Shown here piece by piece: positions 9,504 through 15,784 of a stretch of DNA of 64,000 bases (its first letter is position 1; the number at the start of each line of letters is the position of its first letter). Origin of the DNA: Escherichia coli (lineage in GTDB: Bacteria > Pseudomonadota > Gammaproteobacteria > Enterobacterales > Enterobacteriaceae); the NCBI RefSeq assembly GCF_024502345.1, contig NZ_JALDNN010000001.1. The stretch is one strand, 5' to 3'. Under the pieces are notes generated by a model that was not told the DNA's origin, searched no databases, and saw only the letters and a program-made list of their open reading frames with translations. The position numbers and the translations under genes are program-made.

Positions 9504-10432
9504 CTTTCACCACTTCTGCTCCTGGCGATTTTCTTCTTTTGGTAGTGTCTCCTGGCTGCGGATATCAGATACTTTTCCGTCATTTTGTTGCAGAACTCTT
9601 CAATGTAGTTAATCATTTTCTGGTGTGCTTTCAGCTTTTCTTCCCCGGGGGACGCTTTCAGATAAATGTCCTCCTTTTCCACAAGCGCATTGACAAACTC
9701 CCCTAAACATCCCTGGTTATAAAGCGACGTGAAAAACAACACATCCCCCAGTCTCTCCAGTAACTGTGGTTTATCCCCGAAATGTTTTTTTATACTTTCA
9801 AAAGGTTTTCTATTTTCCGGATCAAAAAAAACACTTAATCCCAGTCGCTTATATTCCTGGTAAAAAAGTTCAAACGTCGGGGATGCTGAACGGCAAATAA
9901 ACGAAGACTGCGCCCATGGATTAAAATCTGTGACACGCCTCCCCTCCCGCACTTCCTGTCGTGTCAGCGGTGGTTCAGCAAACCAGGCGTCCAGCTCAGC
10001 CGAATCGTTATCCCTGCTCAAAACCTCATACAAACTGCCCGTGAACGGTTGAGCCGTTTGTTTTGTTGCTTCGCCTTCTGATTGTCTGAATCCATCCACT
10101 TTTCTCCGGATATTACGCGGAATCAGCATAAAAGGCGGGACATTAAGTGATAAACGTTTACCCGTCATGCGATACCATTGACCTACCTCAACCTTAATCC
10201 GTGTATCTGACCTTAGCTCAAGTGCCATTATGCTAAGCAGGTACAGATAACGCACCGTATAACGATTAAAATGTTTCTCCGGATCAAACGATTCGGACCG
10301 TTCTCCTCTGTACACGACTCTGCTGCGCTTCAGTATTCGCAGAGTATATTTCCAGGCCGGACTTTTACAAATGGCGGTAACTCTGGCCTTATTAACAATG
10401 TCGCGTAATGCATCAATCTGTTGTGCAGTCAT
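9500..10432 (-). CDS. Hypothetical protein, unknown function
   Basis: 310-aa ORF from ATG at 10432 with GGAGG 7 nt upstream; convergent with the preceding CDS and divergent from the GTPase gene. Confidence 0.4.
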   Translation of the reverse strand: MTAQQIDALRDIVNKARVTAICKSPAWKYTLRILKRSRVVYRGERSESFDPEKHFNRYTVRYLYLLSIMALELRSDTRIKVEVGQWYRMTGKRLSLNVPPFMLIPRNIRRKVDGFRQSEGEATKQTAQPFTGSLYEVLSRDNDSAELDAWFAEPPLTRQEVREGRRVTDFNPWAQSSFICRSASPTFELFYQEYKRLGLSVFFDPENRKPFESIKKHFGDKPQLLERLGDVLFFTSLYNQGCLGEFVNALVEKEDIYLKASPGEEKLKAHQKMINYIEEFCNKMTEKYLISAARRHYQKKKIARSRSGES

Positions 10433-10538
10433 CTCTTCCCTCCACACTTTGCCACTCCAGATTTTTTCACGCCCATATTACCTGAATGATAAACCGGATT
10501 AGTGTGATCCGGTTCAGTGAAATCAACAGGATACCGGT

Positions 10539-11423
10539 ATGTCATTCAGCCATTCTTCCCTCTCCGCACAAGTGAAATCATATCTGACGTTTCTTCCTGA
10601 AGAAATTCGCCAGAAAATCCTTGAACATCTCCACGGTGTTATTCATTACGAGCCCGTAATTGGCATTATGGGTAAATCCGGCACCGGCAAAAGCAGTCTG
10701 TGTAATGCCATTTTTCAGTCCCGTATCTGCGCCACGCATCCCCTGAACGGCTGCACCCGCCAGGCTCATCGTCTTACCCTGCAGCTCGGTGAACGCAGAA
10801 TGACGCTGGTCGATATGCCCGGCATTGGTGAGACACCGCAGCATGATCAGGAATACCGGGAGCTTTACCGTCAGTTACTGCCGGAACTGGATCTGATTAT
10901 CTGGATCCTGCGGGCTGATGAACGTGCGTATGCTGCTGATATTGCCATGCATCAGTTTTTACTGAATGAAGGTGCAGATCCCTCGCGTTTTCTGTTTGTT
11001 CTCAGCCATGCCGATCGCGTGTTTCCTGCTGAAGAATGGAACGACACAGAAAAATGCCCGTCCCGTCAGCAGGCGCTCTCACTGGCGACGGTGACAGCCC
11101 GGGTGGCAACCCTGTTCCCTTCATCATTTCCGGTACTCTCCGTTGCCGCACCTGTCGGCTGGAACCTTCCGGCGTTTGTGTCGCTGATGATCCACGCACT
11201 GCCACCACAGGCAACCAGTGCGGTTTATTCACATATCCGGGGGGAAAACCGCTCTGAACAGGCCCGGAAACACGCACAACAGACTTTTGGTGAAACCATC
11301 GGGAAAAGTTTTGACGACGCCGTTGCCCGTTTCAGTTTTCCGGCCTGGATGTTACAGCTTCTGCGCAAAACCCGGGACCGCATTATCCACCTGCTGGTCA
11401 CGCTGTGGGATCACCTGTTCTGA
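10539..11423 (+). CDS. YfjP/YkfA/YeeP-family GTPase (prophage-island GTP-binding protein)
   Basis: 294-aa ORF with P-loop GKSGTGKSS and switch motif DMPG; resembles CP4-type island GTPases. Confidence 0.8.
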   Translation: MSFSHSSLSAQVKSYLTFLPEEIRQKILEHLHGVIHYEPVIGIMGKSGTGKSSLCNAIFQSRICATHPLNGCTRQAHRLTLQLGERRMTLVDMPGIGETPQHDQEYRELYRQLLPELDLIIWILRADERAYAADIAMHQFLLNEGADPSRFLFVLSHADRVFPAEEWNDTEKCPSRQQALSLATVTARVATLFPSSFPVLSVAAPVGWNLPAFVSLMIHALPPQATSAVYSHIRGENRSEQARKHAQQTFGETIGKSFDDAVARFSFPAWMLQLLRKTRDRIIHLLVTLWDHLF

Positions 11424-11541
11424 ACGCCCCGGAGTCCCCCGTGGCAACCGTATACCTTTACACGACAACGGATTACGGTAACCACTGCCGTATACCGTCT
11501 GTCATTATCAATAACACGCTCTTTAATTTCAGAGGTCAGTC

Positions 11542-12219
11542 ATGAATACCAGAATTCTTTTTCCCCTGCTGTTCACTGTGGCATCATTCTCCGCCTCCGC
11601 CGGCAACTGGGCTGTCAAAAACGGCTGGTGTCAGACCATGACGGAAGATGGTCAGGCGCTGGTAATGCTGAAAAATGGCACGATTGGTATTACCGGCCTG
11701 ATGCAGGGATGCCCGAATAGCGTACAGACGCTCCTGGGCAACCGTATCAGTATTAACGGTAACCTGATCCCCACATCACAAATGTGTAATCAGCAGACAG
11801 GATTCAGGGCTGTTGAGGTGGAAGTCGGACAGGCGCCGGAAATGGTCAAAAAAGCCGTTCACTCCATAGCAGAGCGTGATGTGTCAGTTTTACAGGCATT
11901 TGGTGTACGAATGGAATTCACCCGCGGTGATATGCTGAAGGTCTGTCCGAAATTTGTCACATCACTTGCCGGTTTTTCCCCGAAACAGACACCCGCCATT
12001 AATAAAGATTCCGTCCTGCAGGCTGCCCGGCAGGCATACGCCCGGGAATATGACGAGGAAACAACAGAAACCGCTGATTTTGGCTCTTACGAAGTAAAAG
12101 GCAATAAGGTTGAGTTTGAAGTATTCAATCCTGAAGACCGTGCGTACGACAAAGTGACCGTCACGGTTGGTGCTGACGGTAATGCCACCGGCGCCAGCGT
12201 TGAATTTATCGGAAAATAG
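11542..12219 (+). CDS. Predicted secreted/periplasmic protein of unknown function
   Basis: 225-aa ORF with N-terminal signal peptide [20 protein letters not shown]; sits where CP4-type islands carry surface or lipoprotein genes. Confidence 0.5.
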
Positions 12220-12224
12220 CCGGT

Positions 12225-12458
12225 ATGTCGGACTGCCACCCTGTTTTATTGCCCGAAGGCCCTTTCTCACGCGAACAGGCGATGGCTGTCACAACAGCTT
12301 ACCACAATGTGCTTATTGAAGATGATCAGGGAACGCATTTCCGGCTGGTTATCCGCAATGCTGAAGGGCAGCTACGCTGGCGGTGCTGGAATTTTGAACC
12401 TGATGCCGGAAAACAGCTAAATCCGTATCTCGCCAGTGAGGGAATTCTCAGGCAATAA
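12225..12458 (+). CDS. DUF905-family protein (YkfF/YpjK-like)
   Basis: 77-aa [37 protein letters not shown]...WNFEPDAG matches the YkfF family. Confidence 0.7.
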
Positions 12459-12556
12459 ACGTCTTCATTTCATCCATCAGGCCACGTCTTCTCCGGGAGA
12501 CGTGGCTTTTTCATTTATTACACCAGTAAATCTTAATCACCAATAAGGAGCAAATC

Positions 12557-13375
12557 ATGCGATTAGCAAGTCGTTTTGGTTATGCGAACCAGATACGCCG
12601 TGACCGCCCCTTAACTCGCGAAGAACTGATGCAGGTCGTCCCCAGCGTATTCGGGGAAAATAAGCACACATCCAGAAGCGAGAACTATACCTGGATCCCC
12701 ACCATCACCGTGCTGGAAAGCCTGCAGCGGGAAGGCTTTCAGCCCTTCTTTGCCTGCCAGACCCGCGTACGTGACCCGGGCCGCCGGGGGTATACCAAAC
12801 ACATGCTGCGTCTGCGCCATGACGGGGAGATAAACGGACAACATGTCCCTGAAATCATCCTACTGAACTCCCATGACGGTACCTCCAGCTACCAGATGCT
12901 GCCGGGTTACTTCAGGTTCGTCTGCCAGAACGGCTGCGTCTGTGGTCAGTCTCTGGGGGAAGTGCGTGTTCCACACCGGGGAAATGTGGTGGACAGAGTC
13001 ATTGAAGGGGCTTACGAGGTGGTGGGCGTGTTTGACCGGATTGAGGAAAAGCGTGATGCCATGCAGTCGCTGGTCCTGCCGCCACCGGCACGCCAGGCGC
13101 TGGCACAGGCGGCGCTGACTTACCGTTATGGTGACGAACATCAGCCCGTCACCACCGCTGACATTCTGACACCACGACGCAGGGAGGATTACGGTAAGGA
13201 CCTGTGGAGTGCTTATCAGACCATCCAGGAGAATATGCTGAAAGGCGGGATTTCCGGGCGCAGCGCAAAAGGAAAACGTATCCATACCCGGGCCATTCAC
13301 AGCATCGGTACCGACATTAAGCTCAATCGCGCATTGTGGGTGATGGCAGAAACGCTGCTGGAGAGCATGCGCTGA
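12557..13375 (+). CDS. DUF932-family protein (YafZ/YfjQ-like)
   Basis: 272-aa ORF; size and position after DUF905 match YafZ/YfjQ of CP4-type islands. Confidence 0.65.
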   Translation: MRLASRFGYANQIRRDRPLTREELMQVVPSVFGENKHTSRSENYTWIPTITVLESLQREGFQPFFACQTRVRDPGRRGYTKHMLRLRHDGEINGQHVPEIILLNSHDGTSSYQMLPGYFRFVCQNGCVCGQSLGEVRVPHRGNVVDRVIEGAYEVVGVFDRIEEKRDAMQSLVLPPPARQALAQAALTYRYGDEHQPVTTADILTPRRREDYGKDLWSAYQTIQENMLKGGISGRSAKGKRIHTRAIHSIGTDIKLNRALWVMAETLLESMR

Positions 13376-14752: not shown

Positions 14753-15784
14753 ATGAGCAGCATTATCACCACCACAGTGTATACGCTGGATGAACTTTCC
14801 TGCCCTTCTGCACGGGAAAAAGCCCGCGACTGGTACCGTGTGCACCATTCTGACAGCAACTGGTATGAAAACGTGTACGAGGACTTCAGGGCGGTCTGTG
14901 GCATTTTCGGAATTGACCTCCGCCAGCGCGTTTTCCGGCTCAGCAACGGCAGGTTTATGGAAGAGCCGTGCATCTGGTTCAGCGGATTCTGCAGCCAGGG
15001 GGACGGAGCCTGTTTTGAAGGACGCTGGCACTGGCAGTCAGCAACAGCCAGGAGGCTCCGGGAGTATGCCACACAGGACCATGAACTCCATCGTATCGCG
15101 GATGCCCTGCAGGCGGTGCAGAAACGTAACTTCTGGCAACTGCAGGCTGAAATCCACCACCGGGGACGTTACTGCCATCCGTACAGCATGGATATCACTG
15201 TTACCCGGAACAGTCCGACTGGTCAGGCTATGACAGCCGATGCGGAAGCCGCTGTCAGCGAAGCCCTGCGCGACCTGGCCTTCTGGTTGTACCGTCAGCT
15301 GGAAAACGAGTACGACAGGCTGACCTCTGATGCCGCTGTTGATGAGGCCCTTCTCATCAACGAATACACCTTCACCGAAGCCGGTCTGCGCGCCGGCTTA
15401 CCTGAGGACTTTATCGTGTCAGACAAACTCCATGAGACAAATTATCCCGACGACCATAACGACCGCCTCTGGTGGGGACTGCTCTGCACCGTGACGCCCT
15501 GTTTCGGGGCACGTCTGGTGCAGGAGGGTAACCGGTTGCATTACCTTGTCGACCGCGCCGGCATCAGAGGCCTGTTCAGCGATGCAGATGCGTACCACCT
15601 GGACCAGGCCTTTCCGCTGCTGATGAAACAACTGGAGCTCATGCTCACCAGCGGTGAACTGAATCCCCGCCATCAGCATACCGTGACACTGTATGCGAAG
15701 GGGCTGACCTGTGAAGCCGACACCCTCGGCTCCTGTGGTTACGTTTATCTGGCTGTTTATCCGACGCCCGAAACGAAAAAGTAA
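14753..15784 (+). CDS. CbeA/YeeU/YfjZ-type antitoxin (core 15416-15784 from an internal GTG) read in frame with an upstream ~220-aa domain of unknown function
   Basis: C-terminal 122 aa (VSDKLHETNYPDDHNDRLWWGLLCTVTPCFGARLVQEGNRLHY...) match the CbeA antitoxin; there is no stop codon between the 14753 start and the antitoxin core. Confidence 0.6.
   Translation: MSSIITTTVYTLDELSCPSAREKARDWYRVHHSDSNWYENVYEDFRAVCGIFGIDLRQRVFRLSNGRFMEEPCIWFSGFCSQGDGACFEGRWHWQSATARRLREYATQDHELHRIADALQAVQKRNFWQLQAEIHHRGRYCHPYSMDITVTRNSPTGQAMTADAEAAVSEALRDLAFWLYRQLENEYDRLTSDAAVDEALLINEYTFTEAGLRAGLPEDFIVSDKLHETNYPDDHNDRLWWGLLCTVTPCFGARLVQEGNRLHYLVDRAGIRGLFSDADAYHLDQAFPLLMKQLELMLTSGELNPRHQHTVTLYAKGLTCEADTLGSCGYVYLAVYPTPETKK

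Follow-up and report, generated by a model that had tools for sequence, protein, structure and literature searches.

The gene at positions 11542..12219 (+ strand) of the window, the 64,000-nucleotide stretch of Escherichia coli DNA analysed here, belongs, as its founding E. coli member, to an unnamed family that is modular, diverges fast and is carried on integrative genomic islands. The gene and its product are both referred to as X. X is almost certainly real, exported and periplasmic, and it is very probably one of the alternative exported-protein cassettes of a defined island slot. The best explanation as a whole, in which this exported periplasmic family member acts through the protective mechanism proposed below, is given a probability of about 0.35. 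In databases X appears solely as a hypothetical protein, unnamed and without a family, and its kind, an exported accessory protein of a CP4-type island, is a well-known category. Our analysis supplies a family definition, domain boundaries, invariant residues and a predicted compartment for X.

The gene and its predicted product

The features of X, all on the + strand, are as follows.

11531..11535, +: Shine-Dalgarno-like AGAGG, 6 nt 5' of the ATG of X, read from the sequence and kept in CFT073
11542..12219, +: ORF of X, 225 codons (225 aa), ATG start, 678 bp
11542..11601, +: signal peptide, residues 1-20, with a predicted SPase I cut after ASA, the top hydropathy and no lipobox
11602..11961, +: N-terminal domain, residues 21-140, a predicted beta-sandwich with one helix
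11962..12003, +: variable linker, residues 141-154, the least conserved stretch of the alignment (mean pLDDT 72 for residues 141-150)
12004..12216, +: C-terminal domain, residues 155-225, a predicted helix on a 4-stranded antiparallel sheet with a cystatin/PepSY-like fold

X was detected in 1841 of 5426 complete E. coli genomes at 95-100% identity, with up to five copies per genome, and it was full length in 1833 of these carriers, which include the reference pathogens CFT073 and 042. The carriers make up about a third of the complete E. coli genomes, and the gene has neither a name nor a family. The ORF in the window is 100% identical to the copy in E. coli NMBU_W05E18. Across six alleles the dN/dS of X was 0.30 (0.13-0.41 for neighbouring genes), strongly implying that purifying selection acts on X within one family type, and outside the signal peptide most of the substitutions within E. 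coli fell in the linker or in loops. In addition, full-length homologues with 60-65% identity were found in Klebsiella, Citrobacter, Enterobacter and Lelliottia. Because of its presence in 1841 genomes, its dN/dS and these homologues in other genera, the comparisons indicate that X is a real gene and no chance ORF. No match was obtained among 50,697 phage records, while one IMG/VR contig carries X and only 5 plasmid records matched, some of them chromosome-sized. The PGAP label of X in E. coli genomes is always 'hypothetical protein', as it is in other sources; no description of X was found in the literature, where island papers name it only among 'hypothetical proteins'.

The signal peptide was called by rule only (n-region, h-region, -3/-1). 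X shows the features of a Sec (SPase I) substrate, namely a positive n-region formed by R4, an h-region within the 10-15-residue range, small residues at -3/-1 and no lipobox Cys. The 12-residue hydrophobic core has a Kyte-Doolittle value of 2.6, the maximum of the whole protein, and A18-S-A20|G21 satisfies the -3/-1 rule. In homologues the N-terminal sequence varies while its hydrophobicity is kept, and an AxA-type motif precedes a conserved (G)NW. No lipobox of the form [LVI][ASTG][GA]C was present at the end of the signal peptide of X, in which the first Cys, at position 30, belongs to the folded domain. The clear signal peptide reported in a preliminary description of this DNA thus agrees with the rule-based call, which assigns it to the SPase I type. 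Export of X is supported by these signal-peptide features and by the confinement of four invariant Cys to the exported part. The computed mature protein has 205 aa, a mass of 22.2 kDa and a pI of 5.2.

Fold prediction for X was confident and gave a compact two-domain protein. The AlphaFold2 model, built from a 32-sequence alignment, had a mean pLDDT of 84.6, with values below 50 at residues 1-17 only, and the N-domain modelled alone reached a pLDDT of 88.3 and a pTM of 0.83. In the full model the beta-rich domain with its helix spans residues 24-135, and residues 155-224 consist of a single long helix packed against the antiparallel sheet. The alignment shows W23, C30, C57, N72, C82 and C135 unchanged in relatives as distant as 19% identity. 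For an exported protein such as X, the four invariant cysteines among them imply two disulfides, which very probably stabilise it. The modelled C-domain resembles cystatin, PepSY and propeptide-inhibitor folds and that of the colicin M immunity protein, with the following values in the C-domain structural comparison.

Designed cystatin fold: 8.2
YpeB: 6.7
M36 protease propeptide: 6.3
YpmB: 6.1
M4 protease propeptide: 5.7
Colicin M immunity protein (Cmi): 5.5

X differs from these PepSY/cystatin-like proteins (YpeB, YpmB, the M4/M36 propeptides and Cmi) in that the identity within fold superpositions is 8-16%, in a fold class that is very common, and in that the Pfam PepSY model (PF03413, gathering score 24 bits) gave no match to X at E<=10. 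The relative P0060 alone approaches this model, with 15 bits (E=0.03) against the cut-off of 24. Of the two structural checks proposed in the preliminary description, structure prediction yielded the confident two-domain model, whereas Foldseek against the PDB returned nothing significant.

Neither the whole protein nor either domain matched Pfam at E<=10, no match was obtained in NCBIfam or PHROGs, and none of the 5027 defence-system HMMs of PADLOC-DB v2 matched X at E<=0.01. Single-sequence and profile searches of the PDB by sequence gave chance matches only (E>0.1). A profile search with the N-domain alignment returned solely 'hypothetical protein' entries of Enterobacterales. X was also compared with IalB (invasion-associated locus B; PF06776, PDB 3DTD), to which it showed neither a Pfam match nor a close structural match.

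A modular, fast-diverging family

Searching 1.84 billion representatives exhaustively with phmmer gave 57 matches to X, many of them fragments. The full-length distant relatives reveal a modular family, whose modules and architectures are listed below.

Module N: cysteine-rich N-domain, in every family member
Module L: linker motif MGYxxxxDGxWxKKS, optional
Module P: PepSY-like domain
Module T: third domain of ~130 residues with two invariant Cys, optional
Architecture N-P: X and four others of 230-237 aa
Architecture N-L-P: 271-336 aa
Architecture N-L-T: 377-428 aa
Architecture N-(L)-P-T: 410-491 aa
Architecture N-L alone: also observed

Profile searches of Pfam and the PDB with the T domain of the long relatives found no match, and hence no hint of, for example, a lysozyme-inhibitor family. 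All named family members belong to Enterobacterales. At least three of the types (225, 237 and 336 aa) occur within E. coli, those other than X being 19-38% identical to it.

In seven long relatives (P0094, P0095, P0097, P0099, P0102, P0105 and P0106) a lipobox of the form L-T-G-C, L-T-A-C, M-S-G-C or L-S-G-C replaces the SPase I site. Six of these seven carry Asp at +2 (...LTGC-DYFxDNW...), the exception being P0106 with Gly, and in all seven the conserved N-domain Trp lies 6-7 residues after the lipidated Cys. Asp at +2 is an established Lol-avoidance signal that retains lipoproteins in the inner membrane of Enterobacteriaceae. Retention of these relatives in the inner membrane, together with the Trp spacing, therefore suggests that the N-domain works in the periplasm near the surface of the inner membrane. 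The lipoprotein relatives are the strongest clue to the site of action of X.

Relatives occupying the same slot in islands of other Enterobacterales share 19-43% identity with X (18-40% in one alignment, A2). Between distant islands, X shares 26-28% identity along part of its length, compared with 71-75% for DUF932, 49-61% for the GTPase, 53-55% for RadC and 49-58% for the WYL regulator. These comparisons, together with the architectures above, strongly imply that X is the fastest-diverging gene of the island module and that its domains are shuffled between types. Two relatives were found in other settings. The 237-aa member (19% identical to X; 7001-7714 of locus L028, also in L027/L029) ends a small island with the order integrase-311 aa-RadC-resolvase-112 aa-X-like, and one genome has this small island next to cadC, where the island in the window also lies. 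The relative P0071 (230 aa, 36% identical; locus L004 8001-8693) lies on a 49-kb contig of co-oriented small ORFs, which is phage-like and probably a phage because it contains an endolysin-like gene, the sole confirmed phage feature, and a giant DUF7941 protein.

The island slot and the probable local transcription unit

The neighbours of X in the window, all on the + strand, are as follows.

10539..11423, +: YfjP/YeeP-type GTPase gene, 294 aa (Pfam MMR_HSR1, E=5e-15; PGAP 'GTPase family protein'), the upstream neighbour of X
11424..11541, +: intergenic region of 118 nt, from which the YfjR-like WYL regulator gene is absent
12225..12458, +: DUF905 gene, 77 aa (PF06006, E=1.2e-31), starting 5 nt past the stop of X
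12479..12508, +: intrinsic terminator with a 13-bp G+C-rich stem, a 4-nt loop and a U-run, found by terminator scan
12557..13375, +: DUF932 gene, 272 aa (PF06067, E=9e-51), the downstream boundary of the slot

Past the DUF932 gene, the window contains antirestriction, RadC, DUF987 and CbeA/CbtA genes. The window contains the end of a CP4/P4-type island, which lies beside cadCBA, and then core genes as far as phn. Five further E. coli islands have the order inovirus-Gp2-like ... GTPase-WYL/HTH regulator-X-DUF905-DUF932-antirestriction-RadC-DUF987-CbeA/CbtA. The slot is also kept by distant relatives in E. kobei, other Enterobacterales and metagenomes. With few exceptions, family members lie at this single position of CP4/P4-type islands of Enterobacterales, 3' of the YfjP-type GTPase gene, mostly behind a YfjR-like WYL regulator, and 5' of the DUF905 gene, the DUF932 gene or both. 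The 336-aa form in E. kobei and other Enterobacterales lies in the order GTPase-WYL-X-DUF932, the 393-aa form in X-(223 aa)-DUF905-DUF932-RadC-CbeA-CbtA, the 491-aa form in GTPase-(227 aa)-X-(DUF4234 membrane protein)-DUF932-RadC-CbeA-CbtA, and the 234-aa form of Serratia fonticola in GTPase ... X-DUF932 ....

The preliminary description had placed X in the position that carries flu (Ag43) in CP4-44 of K-12, and the comparison of the slot across CP4-type islands agrees with this. CP4-44 has the order yeeP(GTPase)-isrC-flu-yeeR, whereas islands with X read GTPase-(WYL)-X-DUF905-DUF932. Fuller flu islands carry GTPase-Ag43-YeeR(838 aa)-IrmA-DUF905-DUF932, and one island has GTPase-Ag43-DUF932. 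The genes flu, yeeR and irmA (aec69) form a single transcription unit ahead of aec70 and aec71 (PMC6480617). The interval between the GTPase and DUF905 genes thus holds either flu-yeeR-irmA or a YfjR-like regulator and X. In the K-12 islands CP4-57 (locus L010) and CP4-6 (locus L031), the genes just 5' of the DUF905 gene are ypjK-yfjS-yfjT and yafY-ykfB, respectively; both sets follow a YfjR-type regulator or its pseudogene, and their products are inner-membrane lipoproteins and signal-peptide proteins. The position 5' of DUF905 was occupied by exported proteins in every island variant seen, with at least three unrelated alternatives. A slot shared with the adhesin Ag43 and the vaccine candidate IrmA makes X a further exported product of an envelope-shaping locus.

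Several of these alternative products are similar to X in general character. IrmA (c1275/aec69; PDB 5EK5), a secreted interleukin-receptor mimic of UPEC, is likewise a small protein with a Sec signal and a beta-rich exported part, and its gene lies directly 5' of the DUF905 gene (aec70), between the GTPase and DUF932 genes (PMC6480617). The payloads of the YfjR-type operons (YpjK-YfjS-YfjT and YafY-YkfB) are also encoded by exported-protein or lipoprotein genes after a YfjR-type WYL regulator and before DUF905, and YfjS and YafY are annotated as inner-membrane lipoproteins, in parallel with the Asp+2 relatives of X. However, the K-12 YfjR-type cassette sits after DUF932 while X sits before it, the sizes and folds of the payloads differ from those of X, and in hhalign comparisons with the YfjS/YafY and YfjT/YkfB families (probabilities of 1.8% and 0.3%) the signal peptides alone aligned. 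IrmA showed no sequence or profile similarity to X by hhalign. Homology of X to YfjS, YfjT, IrmA, Ag43 or YeeR was rejected on the basis of hhalign, tblastn and blastn.

The identity of X as the remnant of a decayed autotransporter (flu) is practically eliminated. No autotransporter signature (PF03797 barrel, Ag43 similarity) was detected in X by Pfam, tblastn or blastn; against three flu and two K-12 islands the best tblastn match had E=1.3 and the blastn match was a 34-nt chance match. The predicted compact two-domain fold also argues against such a remnant. A characterised lipoprotein is just as poorly compatible with the data, as X has no lipobox and no Pfam, NCBIfam or PDB family match. 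For both identities the sole favourable point is the positional equivalence with flu. X is accordingly neither an autotransporter fragment nor a known lipoprotein, which upholds the earlier suggestion of a distinct protein. Its description as cargo was only half right, because distant relatives occupy this position in distant islands as well. On these comparisons, X is better described as a semi-conserved component of the module, which diverges fast and alternates with cassettes for other exported proteins.

Within the window, X likely forms a transcription unit with its two flanking genes (GTPase-X-DUF905), because the scan revealed no terminator-like site between the GTPase gene and X, the gap to DUF905 is 5 nt and a strong terminator follows. 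The DUF905 gene is likely the bicistronic partner of X. The 5-nt spacing was found in four of five other E. coli islands; the exception is C1, with an annotated DUF905 start 29 nt downstream. The terminator has a folding energy of -23.6 kcal/mol (z=-7.2; 0 of 200 shuffles equal) and separates the X-DUF905 unit from the remaining module genes, beginning with DUF932. CFT073, 042, C1 and GmF052 each have a YfjR-like WYL regulator gene 3' of the GTPase gene and 5' of X, and the CFT073 regulator is 43% identical to K-12 YfjR. Compared with CFT073 (locus L002 6971-8000), ~910 bp comprising the regulator gene and the promoter region are missing in the window. Among the 5426 complete E. coli genomes, 393 have this regulator-less junction. 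With the regulator gene lost, X in the window is probably transcribed by read-through out of the upstream GTPase gene. In addition, CCGTATACC occurs twice 5' of X, at 11448-11456 and 11488-11496, 40 nt apart. These are the only copies in the 64 kb window, where 0.3 are expected by chance, and the second lies inside a hairpin at ~11464-11503 with a fold z-score of -2.0. The repeats are a candidate operator or RNA element.

Possible functions of X

X is almost certainly a Sec-exported, soluble periplasmic protein of ~22 kDa with two domains. In the proposed mechanism, its cysteine-rich N-domain would dock on a target that faces the periplasm at the inner membrane, while the PepSY/cystatin-like C-domain would serve as a binding or inhibitory module. 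X would thereby protect the island-bearing cell by keeping out incoming phage or conjugative DNA (superinfection or entry exclusion), or alternatively through immunity to a periplasm-acting toxin or hydrolase. We infer only tentatively that X binds or inhibits a target as an immunity- or exclusion-type protein. This reading is suggested by its topology, its polymorphism, its fold class and the defence and anti-defence genes near it in the window (BREX, antirestriction, RadC and CbtA/CbeA). It is opposed by the lack of a functionally known homologue and of a PADLOC match, by the absence of X from the phage genomes searched and by the commonness of the fold. The sister cassettes, namely Ag43, IrmA and the YfjR operon, suggest surface or host roles instead.

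Exclusion proteins such as TrbK, TraS/Eex, T4 Imm/Sp and HK97 gp15 are small, highly variable, encoded by mobile elements and located at the periplasmic face of the inner membrane, and several entry or superinfection exclusion proteins are inner-membrane lipoproteins. The likeness of X to them is purely functional and topological, as no sequence or fold relationship was found, and the island of X encodes no transfer apparatus or virion. A more far-reaching version of the proposal, which we regard as speculative and improbable, is that the whole family might serve CP4/P4-type islands as a hitherto unrecognised, polymorphic determinant of exclusion or immunity in the periplasm. Its three Pfam-less domains (the cysteine-rich N-sandwich, the PepSY-like domain and the two-Cys C-terminal domain) would be shuffled in an arms race, with the YfjR-like WYL regulator switching it on upon attack. 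If the exclusion or immunity reading is true, it would offer an initial lead to the function of the conserved yet enigmatic GTPase-DUF905-DUF932-RadC module that CP4-type islands carry; if it is false, X would be an ordinary conserved hypothetical protein.

The main rival is that X might be a surface, biofilm or host-interaction factor, released or displayed by the cell, which affects aggregation or biofilm formation or binds a host molecule. The other payloads of the slot point in this direction, since Ag43 is an adhesin, IrmA is secreted and the YfjR operon has been listed under 'biofilm formation' (PMC8249747). The relatives of X anchored in the inner membrane and the absence of a secretion module speak against it, and we consider such a role unlikely. 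The preliminary description had left the location as periplasmic or surface; judged from the Asp+2 lipoprotein relatives, a periplasmic location is much likelier than a surface one.

X could also serve the island itself, as a periplasmic sensor or partner of the DUF905 protein, the GTPase or the WYL regulator, perhaps by relaying the envelope status or by aiding transfer or establishment. Its conserved position in the island backbone across distant islands, its tight coupling to the DUF905 gene under a common terminator and its frequent pairing with a WYL regulator are consistent with this. However, DUF905 is missing beside the family member in loci L006 and L017, the regulator is dispensable in the window and in the 393 genomes with the same junction, and a soluble periplasmic protein has no evident signalling route to cytoplasmic partners. 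Moreover, many islands exchange the whole cassette for flu-yeeR-irmA with the backbone otherwise kept, so X is not essential to the element. A role in the biology of the island therefore seems improbable.

Finally, it is very improbable that X is a functionally neutral or decaying hitch-hiker maintained by the spread of the island alone: X has no known function, expression data or partner and many truncated or frameshifted copies occur in metagenome and draft assemblies, but it is full length in nearly all complete carrier genomes with a dN/dS of 0.30, its four Cys and several other residues are invariant among distant relatives, its predicted fold is confident and its family is kept in the same slot across genera.

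In addition to the genes of the slot, several features were observed elsewhere in the window. Its first part (~1-7000; locus L001 1-7423) opens with the BREX genes brxC, DUF1788 and DUF1819 and a WYL-domain BrxR-like regulator; next come an IS3 element, gene fragments and an inovirus-Gp2-family gene. The ORFs at 8616-9503 (+) and 9500-10447 (-) had no Pfam or PADLOC match. The GTPase at 10539-11423 gave weak PADLOC matches to LeoBC (E=3e-7) and LeoA (E=2e-3), which are dynamin-like GTPases of the Eleos defence system. The ORF at 14753-15784 (343 aa) consists of a truncated 'antitoxin of toxin-antitoxin stability system' gene fused in frame to the YeeU/CbeA antitoxin, and PGAP annotates this region as a pseudogene and a separate cbeA-like CDS.
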